From assembly GCF_048403405.1 (NCBI RefSeq), contig NZ_CP183129.1: a stretch of 64,000 nucleotides of DNA. One strand, 5' to 3'. The stretch comes from Escherichia coli. GTDB taxonomy: Bacteria; Pseudomonadota; Gammaproteobacteria; Enterobacterales; Enterobacteriaceae. The position numbers and the translations under genes are program-made. Shown one piece after another: positions 1 through 55,987 of the stretch (positions are counted from its first letter, which is position 1; each line of letters starts with the position of its first letter). Under the pieces are notes generated by a model. It was not told the origin of the DNA. It saw only the letters and a list, made by a program, of their open reading frames with translations, and made no database searches.

Positions 1-920
1 TGTACGCATCTTTGATCCTCGCTGAGAATGTTTCACGCCGGGAATAGGCTCTCGCTCAGGCGGGATGGTCCACATCGACGTGTCGAAATCTATCTCCGAC
101 CAGCGAGCAAAACGCAGCTCACTGGATCGAATAAAGATAAGCAGAGTAAGTTCAGTTGCCCAGCGGGTTAGTGGCCTGCCGGTGTATTCATCGATTTTCT
201 GGAGTAATTCCGGGATACGCTTTAACTCCAGCGCCGGACGATGCTGTCGATTACTGGAAGCAACCGCCCCCGCCATCTCTTGCGCCGGATTGTAATCAAT
301 TAACCCGCTTTGCACTGCATAACGCATGATGGCCGTAGTGCGCTGTTGAAGGCGGGAAGCCACTTCAAGACGTCCGGACTTCTCCACGGCTTTAATAGGA
401 ATTAACAGATCGCGGGTGCCTAGTTCAGCAATGTTGCGAGTACCAATTGCCGGGAAGATATTCTCCTCCAAGCTCTTTTTAGACGATTAGCATGATATTC
501 CGACCATTTTTGGTTGGTCACGAGCCACTATTTGGCAACCTTCTCGAAAGTAATAATCTCTTTCGCCTGCTCTTCTTTCACAGCACGTTTATGCTCACGA
601 GGATCGATACCAGCAGCTACCAGCTTTCTGGCCTCTTCCCTTTTCTTCCGCGCATCCGCCAGCGAAACATCCGGGTAAACGCCGAACGCCATCAAATGTT
701 GTTTACCACCAGAACGGAAACGAAATCACCAATACTTTGAACCGCCAGGTTTTACAAGTAAAGACATGCCGTCGCCGTCAACAAGTGAATACTCTTTCTC
801 CTCTGACTTCACAGAACGAACTTTAGTATCCGTTAGGGCAATAATGGTCTTCCTTCCATTGGTATCTCGTGAGTATACAAGCAATATCGAATCGGCAAAT
901 ATGCTTATTAGTATACTCAC
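1..920 (-). pseudogene. intB: Degraded P4-type (tyrosine) integrase adjacent to leuX; runs off the left window edge
   Basis: Minus-strand translation gives ALTDTKVRSVKSEEKEYSLVDGDGMSLLVKPGGSKYW, then in-frame TGA (726-728), FRFRSGGKQHLMAFGVYPDVSLADARKKREEARKL..FEKVAK, in-frame TAG (528-530), then a frame change in a T-run near 474-481, after which NIFPAIGTRNIAELGTRDLLIPIKAVEKSGRLEV continues in another frame to position 1. Integrase-like throughout but not one intact ORF. Confidence 0.75.
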
Positions 921-1042
921 AAGCCTGTTGATGTGGGTTGAGTCAGGTTGACTTCAGTTGAGGAGAAAAGCTGGAAAAGCCTTGCGTGGTGCGGATTTCA
1001 GGCATAAAAAAAGACCTCAGTTGAGGTCTATTTACATACTTT

Positions 1043-1127
1043 TGGTGCCGAAGGCCGGACTCGAACCGGCACGTATTTCTACGGTTGATTTTGAATCAAC
1101 TGCGTCTACCGATTTCGCCACTTCGGC
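1043..1127 (-). tRNA. leuX: tRNA-Leu (anticodon CAA)
   Basis: Reverse complement reads GCCGAAGTGGCGAAATCGGTAGACGCAGTTGATTCAAAATCAACCGTAGAAATACGTGCCGGTTCGAGTCCGGCCTTCGGCACCA: long variable arm, CAA anticodon loop, T-loop GGTTCGAGTCC, encoded CCA end. Confidence 0.95.
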
Positions 1128-1322
1128 ACTGAAGAGGTATGCGGAAAACGTTGTGGATTATACCTGTCGCACGCCACCATGCAAGCGCCAGCTTGCTCGC
1201 ACCTCGCTAAGTGCTGAAATTTTCAGCATTGCATACAGCGATGTGTAACCTTTGTCACACTCCAGGCACCCCGCCCTGCCATGCTCTACACTTCCCAGAC
1301 AACACCAGAGAAGGACCAAAAA

Positions 1323-2342
1323 ATGTCGATGATAAAAAGCTACGCCGCAAAAGAGGCTGGCGGCGAACTGGAACTTTATGAGTACGATCCCGGTGAACTG
1401 AAGCCACAAGATGTTGAAGTGCAGGTGGATTACTGCGGGATCTGCCATTCCGATCTGTCGATGATCGACAACGAATGGGGATTTTCACAGTATCCGCTGG
1501 TTGCCGGGCATGAGGTGATTGGGCGCGTGGTGGCACTCGGGAGCGCCGCGCAGGATAAAGGTTTGCAGGTCGGTCAGCGTGTCGGGATTGGCTGGACGGC
1601 GCGTAGCTGTGGTCACTGCGATGCCTGTATTAGCGGTAATCAGATCAACTGCGAGCAAGGCGCGGTGCCAACAATTATGAATCGCGGCGGCTTTGCCAAG
1701 AAGTTGCGTGCGGACTGGCAATGGGTGATCCCACTGCCAGAAAATATTGATATCGAGTCCGCCGGGCCGCTGTTGTGCGGCGGTATCACGGTCTTTAAAC
1801 CACTGTTGATGCACCATATCACTGCTACCAGCCGCGTTGGGGTAATTGGTATTGGCGGGCTGGGGCATATCGCTATAAAACTTCTGCACGCAATGGGATG
1901 CGAGGTGACAGCCTTTAGTTCAAATCCGGCGAAAGAGCAGGAAGTACTGGCGATGGGTGCCGATAAAGTGGTGAATAGCCGCGATCCACAGGCACTGAAA
2001 ACTCTGGCGGGGCAGTTTGATCTCATTATCAATACTGTGAACGTCAGCCTCGACTGGCAGCCTTATTTTGAGGCGCTGACGTATGGCGGTAATTTCCACA
2101 CCGTCGGTGCGGTTCTCACGCCGTTGCCGGTTCCGGCCTTTACGCTGATTGCGGGCGATCGCAGTGTCTCTGGCTCTGCTACCGGTACACCTTATGAGTT
2201 GCGTAAGCTGATGCGCTTTGCCGCCCGCAGCAAGGTTGCGCCGACTACCGAACTGTTCCCGATGTCGAAAATTAACGACGCCATCCAGCATGTGCGCGAC
2301 GGTAAGGCGCGTTACCGCGTGGTGTTGAAAGCCGATTTTTGA
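1323..2342 (+). CDS. ahr: NADPH-dependent aldehyde reductase, Zn-dependent alcohol dehydrogenase family
   Basis: ORF 1281-2342; start set at [11 protein letters not shown] (339 aa). Zn-ADH motifs GHEVIGRVV and CGHCDAC, and GIGGLGH dinucleotide fold. Confidence 0.9.
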
Positions 2343-2345
2343 AAA

Positions 2346-2909
2346 TCATTCGCAGCGCTGATCTGAGGCGCTGCCCTCTTTCGCACATATTCTGTTTTGT
2401 CGTATCGCCAGCACAGCCTGCCGACATTGTTCGGTGACATTGGCAATATCATGGTTGATATCAATGCGCACAATATCCTGCTCATCTTCTTGTGGACGCT
2501 CCAGTGCCTCAAACTGACTTTTTAGTAACGCTACCGGCATAAAATGCCCAGCCCGACGCTGCATTCGCGCGAGAATAGTTTCATAGTCGCCATCTAACCA
2601 GAGGAAATGAACATGGGGGCTACCCTTGCGTAAAATATCACGATACTGTTTTTTTAATGATGAACAGACAATAAATCCTGTTTCATTCTTTTTATAAAGA
2701 CTGTATGAAGCATCATTTAAGCGTTCCAGCCAGGGAAGTCGATCTTCATCAGATAATGGAATACCCTGCGACATTTTATCTATATTTTTGGCTGGATGAA
2801 GATCGTCACCATCAATAAATTTAGCAGATAATAACGCGGCAACCTTGCTACCAATTAATGTTTTACCACTCCCTGAAACGCCCATCAAAATAAAGCTTTC
2901 ACCCGCCAT
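2346..2909 (-). CDS. idnK: Gluconate kinase (thermosensitive, GntII system)
   Basis: 187-aa ORF with P-loop GVSGSGKT near the N-terminus; divergent from idnD. Confidence 0.9.
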   Translation of the reverse strand: MAGESFILMGVSGSGKTLIGSKVAALLSAKFIDGDDLHPAKNIDKMSQGIPLSDEDRLPWLERLNDASYSLYKKNETGFIVCSSLKKQYRDILRKGSPHVHFLWLDGDYETILARMQRRAGHFMPVALLKSQFEALERPQEDEQDIVRIDINHDIANVTEQCRQAVLAIRQNRICAKEGSASDQRCE

Positions 2910-3010
2910 TTAAAATCTCCTGAATCATCTTACCTGCTGTGATACTACGCCTGGTGGCATAATAATTTCACGTTTTTTTATTTCTGCTGATAAGAATTAC
3001 AAGGCACATC

Positions 3011-3026
3011 ACGTTATGCGTAACAT
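3011..3026. promoter_or_regulatory. Candidate GntR/IdnR operator in the idnK-idnD divergent promoter region
   Basis: ACGTTATGCGTAACAT is a near-perfect 16-bp palindrome resembling the ATGTTAC-N2-GTAACAT operator class of GntR/IdnR (LacI family). Confidence 0.4.
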
Positions 3027-3125
3027 AGTAATGTAACAATTTTCTAACGTGATCTTCATCACAAATAATGACAATTAAAACCGCTTAAATGCTTCCGAGG
3101 TGTCTACCTGACCAGTGAGAAATTT

Positions 3126-4157
3126 ATGCAAGTGAAAACACAGTCCTGCGTTGTTGCAGGCAAGAAAACTGTTGCCGTTACCGAGCAGACGATAGATTGG
3201 AATAATAATGGAACATTAGTACAAATAACCCGAGGTGGAATTTGCGGTTCCGATTTACATTATTATCAGGAAGGAAAAGTAGGTAATTTCATGATAAAGG
3301 CACCGATGGTGTTAGGTCATGAAGTTATCGGTAAAGTTATTCATAGCGACTCATCAGAATTACATGAAGGGCAAACGGTAGCCATTAATCCGTCTAAACC
3401 GTGCGGTCACTGCAAATACTGCATTGAACATAACGAGAATCAGTGTACAGATATGCGTTTTTTTGGCAGTGCCATGTATTTCCCTCATGTTGATGGTGGT
3501 TTTACCCGTTATAAAATGGTCGAAACGTCGCAATGTGTCCCTTATCCGGCCAAAGCTGACGAAAAGGTTATGGCTTTTGCCGAACCTTTAGCCGTCGCGA
3601 TTCATGCCGCACATCAGGCCGGCGAGTTACAGGGCAAGCGAGTATTTATTTCTGGTGTTGGGCCCATTGGCTGCCTGATTGTCAGTGCTGTGAAAACACT
3701 GGGGGCCGCGGAAATTGTCTGTGCCGATGTGAGTCCCCGTTCCCTTTCGCTGGGCAAAGAGATGGGGGCGGAGGTGCTCGTAAACCCACAAAACGACGAC
3801 ATGGATCACTGGAAAGCGGAAAAAGGCTATTTCGATGTCAGCTTTGAAGTGTCCGGTCATCCTTCATCAGTGAATACCTGTCTGGAGGTCACTCGTGCAC
3901 GCGGCGTAATGGTGCAGGTAGGTATGGGAGGCGCGATGGCAGAATTCCCAATGATGACATTGATTGGTAAGGAGATTTCACTCAAAGGCTCTTTCCGTTT
4001 TACCAGCGAATTTAATACCGCAGTGTCATGGCTGGCGAATGGCGTTATCAATCCACTGCCTTTACTGAGTGCTGAATATCCCTTCACTGACCTGGAAGAG
4101 GCGCTACGTTTCGCCGGTGATAAAACCCAGGCAGCAAAAGTCCAGCTTGTTTTCTAA
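3126..4157 (+). CDS. idnD: L-idonate 5-dehydrogenase (Zn-dependent dehydrogenase)
   Basis: 343-aa ORF; GICGSDLHYY and GHEVIGKV Zn-ADH motifs; first gene of idnDOTR. Confidence 0.9.
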   Translation: MQVKTQSCVVAGKKTVAVTEQTIDWNNNGTLVQITRGGICGSDLHYYQEGKVGNFMIKAPMVLGHEVIGKVIHSDSSELHEGQTVAINPSKPCGHCKYCIEHNENQCTDMRFFGSAMYFPHVDGGFTRYKMVETSQCVPYPAKADEKVMAFAEPLAVAIHAAHQAGELQGKRVFISGVGPIGCLIVSAVKTLGAAEIVCADVSPRSLSLGKEMGAEVLVNPQNDDMDHWKAEKGYFDVSFEVSGHPSSVNTCLEVTRARGVMVQVGMGGAMAEFPMMTLIGKEISLKGSFRFTSEFNTAVSWLANGVINPLPLLSAEYPFTDLEEALRFAGDKTQAAKVQLVF

Positions 4158-4180
4158 GAGATAAATAAAGGAATAATACA

Positions 4181-4945
4181 ATGAACGATCTATTTTCACT
4201 GGCAGGAAAAAATATCTTGATTACCGGTTCAGCACAGGGCATTGGCTTTTTACTGGCAACCGGCCTGGGTAAATATGGCGCACAAATAATTATTAATGAT
4301 ATTACTGCCGAACGCGCAGAACTTGCTGTAGAAAAACTCCACCAGGAGGGTATTCAGGCCGTTGCCGCACCTTTTAATGTTACTCATAAACATGAAATTG
4401 ATGCCGCCGTTGAACATATCGAAAAGAACATCGGCCCCATTGATGTGCTGGTGAATAACGCCGGTATCCAGCGCCGTCATCCTTTTACTGAGTTCCCTGA
4501 ACAAGAGTGGAATGATGTGATCGCAGTAAACCAGACCGCCGTGTTCCTGGTATCGCAAGCGGTAACTCGTCACATGGTTGAACGCAAGGCAGGTAAAGTT
4601 ATTAATATTTGCTCGATGCAAAGCGAACTGGGACGTGACACCATCACCCCTTATGCCGCATCGAAAGGGGCGGTAAAAATGCTCACCCGCGGCATGTGCG
4701 TCGAGCTGGCGCGCCACAATATTCAGGTCAACGGTATTGCGCCGGGCTATTTCAAAACAGAAATGACTAAAGCACTGGTTGAGGACGAAGCCTTCACCGC
4801 CTGGTTGTGCAAACGGACCCCCGCCGCACGCTGGGGAGATCCGCAGGAACTGATTGGTGCTGCGGTGTTCCTTTCTTCAAAAGCCTCTGATTTCGTAAAC
4901 GGCCACCTGTTGTTTGTTGATGGCGGCATGTTAGTGGCTGTTTAA
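4181..4945 (+). CDS. idnO: 5-keto-D-gluconate 5-reductase (short-chain dehydrogenase/reductase)
   Basis: 254-aa ORF; TGSAQGIG Rossmann motif and YAASKGAV (YxxxK) catalytic motif. Confidence 0.9.
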   Translation: MNDLFSLAGKNILITGSAQGIGFLLATGLGKYGAQIIINDITAERAELAVEKLHQEGIQAVAAPFNVTHKHEIDAAVEHIEKNIGPIDVLVNNAGIQRRHPFTEFPEQEWNDVIAVNQTAVFLVSQAVTRHMVERKAGKVINICSMQSELGRDTITPYAASKGAVKMLTRGMCVELARHNIQVNGIAPGYFKTEMTKALVEDEAFTAWLCKRTPAARWGDPQELIGAAVFLSSKASDFVNGHLLFVDGGMLVAV

Positions 4946-5009
4946 CAGCCACCACCCTACGTGCAGCGCGAAAGCGCTGCTTTTCTGGCACTAATAAGAG
5001 ATAAAGACT

Positions 5010-6329
5010 ATGCCATTAATCATTATTGCGGCAGGCGTCGCGCTGCTTCTTATCCTGATGATCGGCTTTAAAGTTAACGGCTTTATTGCCCTCGTTCTGG
5101 TAGCTGCCGTCGTCGGATTTGCCGAAGGGATGGATGCACAGGCCGTCCTGCACTCTATACAAAATGGTATCGGCAGCACGCTCGGCGGGCTGGCAATGAT
5201 CCTCGGTTTCGGGGCCATGTTAGGCAAGCTGATTTCTGATACGGGCGCGGCACAACGTATCGCCACTACGCTGATTGCTACTTTTGGTAAAAAACGCGTG
5301 CAATGGGCGCTAGTGATCACCGGTCTGGTTGTGGGCCTCGCCATGTTTTTTGAAGTGGGTTTTGTCCTGCTGTTGCCGTTGGTATTTACCATCGTGGCAT
5401 CATCTGGATTACCCCTGTTGTATGTTGGCGTACCGATGGTAGCAGCGCTCTCTGTAACCCACTGTTTTCTGCCGCCACATCCAGGGCCTACTGCCATCGC
5501 GACTATCTTTGAGGCTAATCTCGGAACGACTTTACTGTATGGATTTATCATTACCATTCCGACAGTTATTGTCGCAGGACCGCTGTTTTCTAAACTGCTA
5601 ACTCGCTTTGAGAAAGCACCACCGGAAGGCTTATTTAATCCTCATCTGTTTAGCGAAGAGGAGATGCCCTCCTTCTGGAACAGTATTTTCGCTGCCGTGA
5701 TCCCGGTCATCCTGATGGCTATCGCCGCCGTTTGTGAAATTACGTTACCGAAAACTAACGCCGTGCGCCTCTTCTTTGAATTTGTCGGTAACCCTGCCGT
5801 TGCGCTGTTTATTGCCATTGTTATTGCGATTTTCACACTGGGCCGACGTAATGGACGCACCATCGAGCAAATCATGGATATCATTGGGGATTCTATAGGC
5901 GCTATCGCGATGATTGTGTTTATTATCGCTGGCGGCGGCGCGTTTAAGCAGGTATTAGTAGATAGCGGTGTCGGGCAGTATATTTCACACTTAATGACCG
6001 GAACTACACTTTCGCCGTTATTGATGTGCTGGACTGTTGCGGCGCTGTTGCGTATCGCTCTGGGCTCTGCCACCGTCGCGGCCATTACCACCGCGGGTGT
6101 GGTGTTGCCGATTATCAACGTTACCCATACCGATCCCGCTTTAATGGTACTGGCAACCGGTGCGGGCAGCGTGATCGCATCACACGTAAACGACCCTGGC
6201 TTCTGGCTATTTAAAGGGTATTTTAATCTGACGGTTGGTGAAACGTTGCGTACCTGGACGGTGATGGAAACCCTTATTTCTATTATGGGTTTGCTGGGCG
6301 TGTTAGCCATTAACGCCGTATTGCACTGA
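5010..6329 (+). CDS. idnT: L-idonate/5-ketogluconate/gluconate transporter (GntP family permease)
   Basis: 439-aa highly hydrophobic ORF; position in the idn operon. Confidence 0.9.
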   Translation: MPLIIIAAGVALLLILMIGFKVNGFIALVLVAAVVGFAEGMDAQAVLHSIQNGIGSTLGGLAMILGFGAMLGKLISDTGAAQRIATTLIATFGKKRVQWALVITGLVVGLAMFFEVGFVLLLPLVFTIVASSGLPLLYVGVPMVAALSVTHCFLPPHPGPTAIATIFEANLGTTLLYGFIITIPTVIVAGPLFSKLLTRFEKAPPEGLFNPHLFSEEEMPSFWNSIFAAVIPVILMAIAAVCEITLPKTNAVRLFFEFVGNPAVALFIAIVIAIFTLGRRNGRTIEQIMDIIGDSIGAIAMIVFIIAGGGAFKQVLVDSGVGQYISHLMTGTTLSPLLMCWTVAALLRIALGSATVAAITTAGVVLPIINVTHTDPALMVLATGAGSVIASHVNDPGFWLFKGYFNLTVGETLRTWTVMETLISIMGLLGVLAINAVLH

Positions 6330-6394
6330 AAGAATAAAATATTGTGATGTAGTTTCGGGGGAAGATTGAAGATTCCCCGACGTTGGGAGAAGTT

Positions 6395-7393
6395 ATGCGC
6401 AATCACAGAATTTCTTTACAGGATATCGCTACGCTGGCTGGCGTAACAAAAATGACCGTGAGTCGTTATATCCGCTCGCCGAAAAAGGTGGCAAAGGAAA
6501 CAGGCGAGCGCATCGCCAAAATTATGGAAGAGATCAATTATATCCCTAATCGCGCTCCCGGCATGTTGTTGAATGCACAAAGTTATACCCTCGGTATCTT
6601 GATTCCGTCATTTCAAAATCAACTCTTCGCTGACATTCTCGCGGGAATAGAATCCGTCACCTCTGAGCATAATTATCAGACCCTTATTGCTAATTACAAT
6701 TACGATCGCGATTCCGAAGAAGAGTCGGTGATTAACCTGCTCTCTTATAACATTGACGGGATTATACTTTCGGAAAAATATCACACCATCAGGACGGTGA
6801 AATTTCTGCGTTCAGCCACCATTCCGGTCGTGGAATTGATGGATGTACAGGGAGAACGGCTGGATATGGAGGTCGGTTTTGATAATCGGCAGGCCGCTTT
6901 TGACATGGTGTGTACCATGCTGGAGAAGCGAGTCAGGCACAAAATTCTGTATCTCGGTTCCAAAGATGACACCCGCGATGAACAGCGTTATCAGGGGTAT
7001 TGCGATGCGATGATGCTGCATAATCTTTCCCCATTACGCATGAATCCACGCGCCATCTCATCCATTCATTTAGGAATGCAGTTAATGCGTGATGCCCTTA
7101 GCGCAAACCCGGATTTAGACGGTGTATTTTGCACCAATGACGATATTGCGATGGGTGCGCTTCTGCTGTGCCGCGAGCGAAACCTCGCCGTGCCAGAACA
7201 AATTTCCATTGCGGGTTTTCATGGGCTGGAGATTGGCAGGCAAATGATCCCAAGCCTCGCCAGCGTAATTACTCCCCGTTTTGATATTGGTCGGATGGCC
7301 GCCCAAATGTTGCTGAGCAAAATTAAGAATAACGATCACAACCACAACACTGTTGACCTCGGGTATCAGATTTATCACGGTAACACGCTTTAG
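6395..7393 (+). CDS. idnR: LacI-family transcriptional regulator of the idn operon
   Basis: ORF 6383-7393; start chosen at MRNHR (332 aa). N-terminal [24 protein letters not shown]. Confidence 0.85.
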
Positions 7394-7470
7394 GTTATTT
7401 TCTCTGCATTACACATATTCTCTTTGCCGGACGTTGCCTATACTCCAGGCAGGAAACTGGAGGAAATCTC

Positions 7471-8973
7471 ATGAGCGAACCCCTGTTAATTGCCCGCACG
7501 TCGGATACAGAACTGTTTTTATTGCCGAGAATGGCGAATCGTCACGGGCTGATTACTGGCGCAACGGGGACGGGTAAAACCGTTACGCTGCAAAAACTGG
7601 CAGAGTCATTGTCGGAAATCGGTGTTCCGGTGTTTATGGCCGATGTGAAAGGCGATCTGACCGGCATCGCGCAGGCAGGAACGGCGTCGGAAAAACTGCT
7701 CGCAAGGCTTAAAAATATCGGCGTAAATGACTGGCAACCTCATGTTAATCCGGTGGTGGTGTGGGATATCTTTGGCGAGAAAGGCCACCCGGTGCGGGCG
7801 ACGGTTTCGGATCTGGGGCCGCTGTTGCTGGCACGACTGTTGAATCTCAACGATGTGCAATCTGGCGTGCTGAATATCATCTTCCGCATTGCTGATGATC
7901 AGGGGCTGTTACTGCTCGACTTTAAAGATTTGCGGGCGATTACCCAGTACATCGGCGATAACGCCAAATCCTTCCAGAATCAGTATGGTAATATCAGTAG
8001 CGCATCGGTTGGTGCCATCCAGCGCGGGCTGTTATCGCTGGAACAGCAAGGCGCGGCGCACTTTTTTGGTGAGCCGATGCTGGATATCAAAGACTGGATG
8101 CGTACCGATGCCAACGGTAAAGGCGTTATCAATATCCTCAGCGCCGAGAAGCTTTATCAGATGCCGAAACTGTACGCCGCCAGCCTGCTGTGGATGCTTT
8201 CAGAATTGTATGAACAATTGCCTGAAGCGGGCGATCTGGAGAAACCAAAACTGGTGTTTTTCTTCGACGAAGCACATCTGCTGTTTAACGATGCACCGCA
8301 GGTACTGCTGGATAAGATTGAGCAGGTGATAAGGCTTATCCGCTCGAAAGGCGTGGGCGTCTGGTTCGTTTCGCAAAACCCGTCAGATATTCCGGATAAC
8401 GTGCTCGGGCAGCTCGGTAATCGCGTTCAACACGCTTTGCGTGCTTTTACGCCTAAAGATCAGAAAGCAGTGAAGGCAGCGGCGCAAACCATGCGCCCCA
8501 ACCCTGCATTTGATACGGAAAAGGCGATTCAGGAACTGGGCACCGGCGAGGCGTTGATCTCTTTTCTGGATGCGAAAGGAAGCCCTTCTGTGGTGGAACA
8601 GGCGATGGTGATTGCGCCTTGTTCGCGGATGGGACCGGTGACGGAAGATGAGCGTAATGGCTTGATTAATCACTCTCCGGTGTATGGCAAGTACGAGGAT
8701 GACGTGGACCGGGAATCCGCCTATGAGATGTTGCAAAAAGGCTTTCAGGCCAGTACCGAGCAGCAAAATAATCCTCCCGCGAAAGGGAAAGAGGTGGCGG
8801 TGGATGACGGTATTCTCGGTGGATTGAAGGATATTTTGTTTGGCACTACCGGACCACGCGGCGGGAAGAAAGATGGTGTGGTGCAAACAATGGCGAAAAG
8901 CGCCGCCCGCCAGGTGACGAATCAGATTGTGCGTGGTGTGCTGGGGAGTTTGCTGGGGGGGAGAAAAAGATAA
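7471..8973 (+). CDS. yjgR: Uncharacterised P-loop NTPase (DUF853-type)
   Basis: 500-aa ORF; Walker A GATGTGKT near residue 30 and Walker-B-like [12 protein letters not shown]. Confidence 0.85.
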
Positions 8974-29598: not shown

Positions 29599-29738
29599 AA
29601 GGAGTCCCTCCGCACTGTCTGAAACAGTACAGAAATGTCTTCAGGCGTGGCGAAGCCTTACCTGAAGGTAATAAAGCTGAGCTGGGACGTTAAAACGTCA
29701 CGGCCTTACGCATCCGGTAACGCCGTGAAAAGACGGGC

Positions 29739-29792
29739 TTACCGGAAAAGTTTTAATCTCCGTCGAGGGAGAGGCGTGGGATCAGGTTCCAT
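29739..29792 (-). CDS. mgtL: mgtA leader peptide (proline-rich)
   Basis: 17-codon [20 protein letters not shown] in the leader upstream of mgtA. Confidence 0.8.
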
Positions 29793-29976
29793 ATAACCTC
29801 CGGTAAGTGAAAAAAGCGCCGCAAATAATAAGGAGAATCCAATAATATTCGTAGCATCTATGGCGATATAATACCTGCTGGCAACTAAACCAACGATAAA
29901 CCAGACTTTACCCATTGCTGAATGCACGGGTAAAGTTAGGCTCAAATAATTAAACAACACGTTACGGGACAACAGG

Positions 29977-46144: not shown

Positions 46145-46189
46145 AGTTTCCCCCGGTGAAAAGCGTGCGCCCGGTAAGCCAGATAAGAC

Positions 46190-46285
46190 ACAACAGCGTC
46201 GCATCAGGCATCTCGCACAATCGCCGGATGCGGCATAAACACCTTATCCGGCGGCGTACAAGTCGGCATCAGGCATTGATGCCCC
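46190..46285. repeat. REP elements between ytfR and ytfQ
   Basis: CGCCGGATGCGGCATAAACACCTTATCCGGCGGCGTACA and CGGCATCAGGCATTGATGCC. Confidence 0.8.
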
Positions 46286-55810: not shown

Positions 55811-55987
55811 AGTTTTTCATTTATCAGCAGTCTGAATTTTAACCCTCTGGCGGCTTTACAGTACCTTACGCTATACTAGCCACTGAAAATGCCGGTTCAC
55901 TTTCTTCGAATCGGCTTTCAATGTGTATTTCACACAAATTAATCAACTTCCCCTTCCGAGGATCTGGCCTGAAAGGTCGGATAAGAT

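Follow-up and report, generated by a model that had tools for sequence, protein, structure and literature searches.

The 64-kb stretch of Escherichia coli DNA analysed here (the window) begins inside an integrase gene that is visibly inactivated and lies next to a tRNA gene. The question raised by this locus is whether the integrase died in place, as part of the element whose cargo adjoins it, or whether integrase and cargo have separate histories. The preliminary description of the window had favoured the former, i.e. an old, decaying integrative element at a tRNA insertion hotspot, with any cargo situated beyond position 1. Taken as a whole, the evidence is best explained by positions 1–1127 being the junction (attL) at which an E. 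coli genomic island meets leuX, which we regard as very probable. The features concerned are listed in Table 1.

Table 1. Coordinates of features at the leuX-proximal end of the window, with strand and supporting evidence.
Feature	Position	Strand	Evidence
P4-type tyrosine integrase pseudogene, codons 1-281 of 422	1-842	-	PGAP, tblastn to P4 Int; ~426 nt more past the left edge
Lesion-free 3'-type integrase segment, part of the 298-codon open frame from TTG 471 (MS 69-1 segment L001 19575-20471)	1-441	-	NCBIfam integrase domain, E = 4.6e-47
Recombination crossover interval inside the integrase gene, as placed by allele alignment	442-462	.	Last MEI003-distinguishing site 441, first 2014C-3338-distinguishing site 463
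Lesion 4: 1-bp deletion in codon 121 (GTA>C-), frame -2 to frame -1	481-482	-	Allele alignment, tblastn
Lesion 3: codon 105 GAG>TAG (base 530)	528-530	-	SMS-3-5 without this lesion
Lesion 2: codon 39 CGA>TGA (base 728)	726-728	-	Common to SMS-3-5, where PGAP flags 'internal stop'
Lesion 1: start codon ATG>ATT (base 840)	840-842	-	G in all five other alleles; common to SMS-3-5
13-nt inverted repeat CTCGTGAGTATAC / GTATACTCACAAG in the leuX-integrase spacer	866-923	.	Repeat search, 92% complementary
Terminator-like hairpin and T-run just downstream of leuX, in island-side DNA	1006-1029	-	7-bp stem AGACCTCAACTGAGGTCT, then TTTTTTT; inverted repeat; consensus match only
Attachment-site core GAGTCCGGCCTTCGGCACCA, attL side of the island, leuX 3' end	1043-1062	-	Exact match to the annotated P4 attP core
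tRNA-Leu(CAA) leuX, intact	1043-1127	-	ARAGORN; Rfam RF00005, 59.4 bits

Beyond its first kilobase the window consists of unremarkable core chromosome that extends from ahr to qorB. It includes an idnK-idnD-idnO-idnT-idnR block (2346–7393) that is absent in strain 2014C-3338, where yjgR directly follows ahr. Five Rfam matches scored above the gathering threshold, namely Ysr276 (12099–12293, antisense, within pepA), a Mg riboswitch upstream of mgtA (29692–29807), naRNA4 (46177–46253), STnc450 (55869–55926) and ES239 (60498–60620), all of which are expected for an E. coli core chromosome.

ARAGORN returned a single tRNA in the 64 kb, with a CAA-anticodon cloverleaf. All 85 of its bases are identical to those of K-12 leuX (b4270), so that the identification as tRNA-Leu(CAA) made from the letters holds. 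The gene order idnK-ahr-leuX-integrase is likewise common to both. The final 20 nt of leuX constitute the 20-bp core of the P4 attP site, which occurs once in the window when up to three mismatches are permitted (0 copies expected by chance). Where the island begins is marked by strain 4621 of the same clone, in which homology with the window extends from the integrase to position 1066 and stops at a degenerate core, TGGTGC-GAAGGCCGGACTCAAAC. Here, a second, CP4-like island has been wedged between leuX and the dead integrase. This tandem insertion delimits the island and shows that other elements continue to use leuX. Islands of this type (CbtA/YeeU, RadC, antirestriction protein, DUF957) occupy the same position in strain 4621 (segment L005 3923–9001) and in SMS-3-5 (segment L013 3389–6547); in both, a degenerate copy of the att core parts them from the integrase, an arrangement of tandem accretion at leuX. 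The locus is among the standard island hotspots of E. coli (PMC11537424), and the earlier view of leuX as an insertion hotspot is borne out, the site being a variable one.

The DNA between leuX and the integrase contains two structures of possible regulatory relevance. The hairpin just downstream of the tRNA would act as the leuX terminator. A 14-nt direct repeat, GACYTCAGTTGAGG, is found at 950–963 and 1013–1026, the second copy lying within this hairpin. The 13-nt inverted repeat is also present upstream of the intact integrase of a plasmid-borne copy of the module (see below) and possibly represents an integrase promoter/operator or an arm-type site. The P4 arm-type repeats themselves (GGGGGCAT family, six annotated) found no match at up to two mismatches in positions 1–1140, as is to be expected with an integrase only 58% identical to P4 Int. 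A scan of positions 800–1330 for the sigma-70 consensus returned no promoter-like site; the stretch just upstream of TTG 471 lies outside the region scanned.

The gene had been described as integrase-like along its whole visible length, and tblastn agrees. When the minus strand is translated, integrase-like protein appears in one frame between 842 and about 474 and in a second frame between about 480 and position 1. P4 Int gave two matches to positions 1–1200 (E = 2.9e-73), one at 842–474 in frame -2 and the other at 471–4 in frame -1. With the closest intact allele, a 422-residue protein of strain 2014C-3338, the same search gave E = 4.7e-156, again in two frames, at 91–99% identity. The intact allele contains the domains Arm-DNA-bind_3 (PF13356, 9e-29), Phage_int_M (PF22022, 3.6e-28) and Phage_integrase (PF00589, 1.2e-19) and aligns end to end with P4 Int (57.9% identity, 97% of the length, E = 6e-155). 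The stretches FxRSSELR, GxKM, HGFR, SH and AAYIH are kept in this pairwise alignment, the catalytic residues R-K-H-R-H-Y being assigned by motif reading and not from a structure. The same gene is annotated in MS 69-1 (4563336–4564603) as a PGAP pseudogene, 'frameshifted; internal stop', and strain 4621 carries the same flag.

Base-by-base alignment with the intact 2014C-3338 allele and four other alleles revealed four lesions. The two in-frame stops lie exactly where they had been placed, and the frame change suspected near 474–481 is a 1-bp deletion at 481/482; alignment to P4-type integrases thus confirmed these positions. The earlier inventory was incomplete in that the loss of the start codon at base 840 had been overlooked. 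The true start also corrects the spacing: it lies at 842–840, 200 bp from the tRNA 3' end at 1043, and the gap of about 120 bp given previously can be traced to a fortuitous GTG at 920. With no start, stops at codons 39 and 105 and a -1 frameshift in codon 121, the integrase gene cannot make a recombinase. All four lesions fall within the first 363 nt of the gene, while the other ~890 nt form an open frame of 298 codons.

Were the stops and the frameshift sequencing or assembly errors, the integrase would in truth be intact. Beyond the short A/T-rich stretch surrounding the deletion at 481, nothing speaks for this. Three of the four lesions are substitutions, two recur in SMS-3-5, and positions 455–1000 (546 bp) show 100% identity across ten complete genomes that were assembled independently and that differ in laboratory, host and country of origin. 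Hence, the lesions are not errors of sequencing or assembly, and we give the idea hardly any chance of being correct.

The confinement of the lesions to one end of the gene is accounted for by comparison with three further genomes. Against strain MEI003, only four differences were seen over window 442–8538, but 40 over window 56–441. Strain Res13-Lact-PER13-34 (Res13) shows a single difference (at 3120) over window 442–5245 and diverges from 5246 onwards. The pattern is opposite against 2014C-3338, which has an intact integrase and a BREX island: four differences were found in the 961 nt of window -499..462, only one of them inside the window (base 24), as against 21 in window 463–990, and ahr is strongly divergent. 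In Fisher tests the contrast with MEI003 reached p = 2e-40 and that with 2014C-3338 p = 7e-7. These opposite patterns place a crossover at 442–462. The pseudogene is thereby shown to be a chimera formed by homologous recombination. Either a BREX island entered an MEI003-like chromosome, or an 8-kb MEI003-like tract entered a BREX-bearing chromosome. For the core region to the right, all genomes with 100% identity belong to the same clone, and the next best reaches 99.2%. One of the relatives found with this region, NRZ14408, has an intact nanS followed by an HNH gene. A copy of the integrase and BREX genes on the plasmid pX14-3-NDM was considered as donor and rejected, as it shows numerous differences from the window to the left as well as to the right of the crossover.

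The order of events follows from the truncated alleles. In MEI003 and Res13 the dead integrase ends after ~777 nt. Adjoining it there, as in SMS-3-5, are an IS remnant, a WYL gene and a cluster containing a JetD-domain gene; in MEI003 and Res13 it is not BREX that follows. In SMS-3-5 the same gene, likewise truncated, has lost its start codon and carries the TGA but neither the TAG nor the frameshift, both of which occur only in the ten genomes. This nested subset of lesions implies that decay ran on a gene already truncated and that the TAG and the frameshift postdate the loss of the 3' end. Consequently, the full-length, lesion-free 3' part must have been joined later, from an allele intact or very recently so. 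Moreover, since MEI003 and Res13 have the lesion-bearing segment beside a different island, the lesions arose before the dead integrase became linked to its present cargo. To the left of the truncated integrase, MEI003 (segments L012/L014) and Res13 (L011) carry a WYL regulator and a four-gene cluster that includes a 1478-residue protein and the JetD-domain (Wadjet-type) protein.

These observations bear directly on the model of the preliminary description, in which a single old integrative element decayed in place, the integrase lesions having arisen on the same element as the present cargo. Four inactivating lesions, a lost distal attachment site with a truncated nanS at the far end, and IS remnants inside the island are what such an element might display. 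However, decay in place should leave neutral changes spread along the gene. Instead, 17 of the 18 lineage-unique substitutions in the integrase gene and its upstream region are located within the 528 bp of window 463–990, and one in the other ~890 nt. Nor is the model reconciled with a 3' part nearly identical to an intact allele, or with the same lesion segment on a truncated gene beside another island in MEI003 and Res13. We therefore consider it unlikely. What survives of it is the dead P4-type integrase and the variable island site; what does not is the notion of one element decaying in situ, the pseudogene being recombinant. Integrase decay at leuX is a recurrent event as judged from a further allele: the leuX integrase of CFT073 (segment L010 179–1443) is independently dead, with two stops and a frameshift near its 3' end, and is followed by a type III restriction-modification gene, i.e. 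it met the same fate beside a different cargo.

What is said about the DNA left of position 1 comes from near-identical proxy genomes rather than from the assembly to which the window belongs. Over 64 kb, the window and the E. coli MS 69-1 chromosome share 99.997% identity, with one mismatch and one homopolymer indel. The one of these two differences that was located is a C4 versus C5 homopolymer at 6376–6380, just upstream of idnR, which may be a sequencing artefact in one assembly. Four genomes match window 1–1300 at 100%, and the 20 kb to the left are also 100% identical among all four.

Leftward from the integrase, the proxies contain brxA, brxB, brxC, pglX, two extra genes, pglZ, brxL, an IS3 remnant and a GIY-YIG gene. 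PADLOC models match brxA, brxB, brxC, pglX, pglZ and brxL with E-values from 1.6e-94 to 0, and the PGAP names agree. By these matches the cargo operon is a BREX type 1 system, for which site-specific adenine methylation and phage exclusion are the predicted functions. The pair between pglX and pglZ corresponds end to end to HEC-01A and HEC-01B (PADLOC, E = 1e-181 and 5e-100). It is situated at MS 69-1 segment L001 8774–10458 (about window -11226..-9542) and encodes an ABC ATPase and a TOPRIM-like protein. HEC-01 (Hma-embedded candidate 01) has been published as a defence candidate, and the only reported assay showed no protection. Its name in PADLOC-DB derives from embedding in Hma; in the present case it is embedded in BREX, outside the window. 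Within pglX, about 1.2 kb (L001 ~11200–12400, about window -8793..-7592) have a G+C content of 0.37 and gave no megablast alignment between MS 69-1 and 2014C-3338, the rest of the operon being ~98% identical; this stretch is likely a swapped target-recognition region.

Further left, WYL and GTPase genes, IS2, a CP4-type backbone (DUF932, RadC, YeeU/CbtA, DUF4942) and AbiEii follow. Next come part of a phosphorothioate-dependent restriction enzyme, an HNH gene and, by the far end, the truncated nanS. The island measures ~32–34 kb in near-identical genomes, with a patchy G+C content of 0.37 to 0.53. The expectation of cargo beyond position 1 has thus proved correct, the DNA being accessory, of patchy low G+C and with genes annotated in the proxies. 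Any novelty suspected there has given way to a known system, BREX type 1 with the HEC-01 candidate. The module of integrase, BREX, HEC-01 and IS3 remnant also occurs on E. coli plasmids of 225–280 kb, e.g. pX14-3-NDM (NZ_CP084057.1, segment L015 4469–22883). The plasmid module has an intact integrase and includes 43 nt from the 3' end of leuX.

A second copy of the tRNA 3' end was sought leftwards on both strands, over 70 kb in MS 69-1 and 48 kb in 2014C-3338, and none was found. Exact 11-mers and probes of 16–30 nt were used, which detect sites with at least 11 exact bases or up to four mismatches in 20, so that a more degenerate site could escape. The absence of a core copy in 2014C-3338 indicates that attR is gone even where the integrase survives. 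Of the two signs of an integrative element proposed for the DNA to the left, a tRNA-derived direct repeat and foreign DNA, only the latter is present, no repeat having appeared over 70 kb. Lacking both an integrase and a distal attachment repeat, the island would no longer be able to excise and would be fixed in the chromosome, immobilised.

This view would need to be modified if the 298-codon frame, which spans the central and catalytic domains from TTG 471 to the normal stop, still produced an active recombinase. Such a truncated protein, devoid of the arm-binding domain, might act on core sites. The frame is open up to the usual stop, its integrase-domain score is high (E = 4.6e-47) and the motifs of the catalytic region align with those of P4 Int. 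The recent origin of the segment by recombination, however, fully suffices to explain why the frame is open. No promoter-like site emerged from the 800–1330 scan, the sole purine-rich stretch, as judged by eye, directly abuts TTG 471, and a lineage-specific A348V exchange sits beside the HGFR box. Integrases of the lambda family require the arm-binding domain for full recombination, and no attR partner was found on which the protein could act. An active truncated enzyme is accordingly very unlikely, more so than decay in place, and we maintain the reading of an immobilised island.

Among known systems, the leuX-intB locus of K-12 (KpLE2, or 'cryptic prophage PR-Y') resembles the window in its layout of idnK, ahr, leuX and an integrase pseudogene, with an identical leuX. 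It differs in that intB is another allele, with ~75% nucleotide identity, directly followed by IS2 and not by BREX. With P4 the locus shares, through the intact allele, 57.9% identity to Int and the same domain architecture, as well as the identical 20-bp core at the leuX 3' end, whereas the window is devoid of the P4 arm repeats, the island has no annotated P4 replication or capsid-hijack genes, and the integrase is dead. PAI II536 of the uropathogenic E. coli 536 is likewise integrated at leuX; its P4-like integrase targets this gene specifically, and insertion leaves the tRNA restored (PMC3202238). It is, however, an island with flanking direct repeats and an active integrase, excisable and loaded with virulence genes; the window island has neither the repeats nor the active integrase, and its cargo is defence.

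Closest in cargo is StySA of Salmonella Typhimurium, a BREX type 1 system in a variable leuX island with a P4-family integrase and an added gene pair containing an ATPase (PMC9009780). The likeness, BREX type 1 at leuX plus an extra gene pair, is drawn from the description and concerns another species. The BREX system of E. coli HS has been placed at thrW (PMC9009780), so that BREX at leuX in E. coli represents another placement of the same kind of module. The locus as such is of a known kind, a textbook tRNA-linked island junction, and its exact sequence is already recorded as a pseudogene in RefSeq.

The following history emerges from these data. The 5' 380 nt of the integrase gene together with leuX, ahr and idn, up to about window 8538, stem from a haplotype whose 3'-truncated integrase had decayed stepwise. 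The 3' ~890 nt come from a recently intact integrase travelling with a type 1 BREX operon. Island content at this site may now turn over in two ways: the conserved integrase/leuX flank would serve for homologous recombination, and the leuX site, which is still perfect, would admit further P4-type elements, of which strain 4621 offers an example. The island's own site-specific recombination would no longer contribute to the turnover.

In this clone, BREX type 1 with the embedded HEC-01 pair appears to be fixed at leuX, which could provide a handy native context for tests of HEC-01. As to the wider meaning, we tentatively suggest, at somewhat less than even odds, that dead integrase stubs at tRNA genes persist as homology anchors for the exchange of whole defence islands, in the present case BREX with HEC-01 versus the island with the JetD cluster, the cargo at leuX being younger than the integrase lesions and unrelated to them. 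Because the lesions had arisen before integrase and present cargo came together, their number can mislead on the age of the cargo. If the suggestion is true, the decay of an integrase would tell nothing about how old the cargo beside it is.
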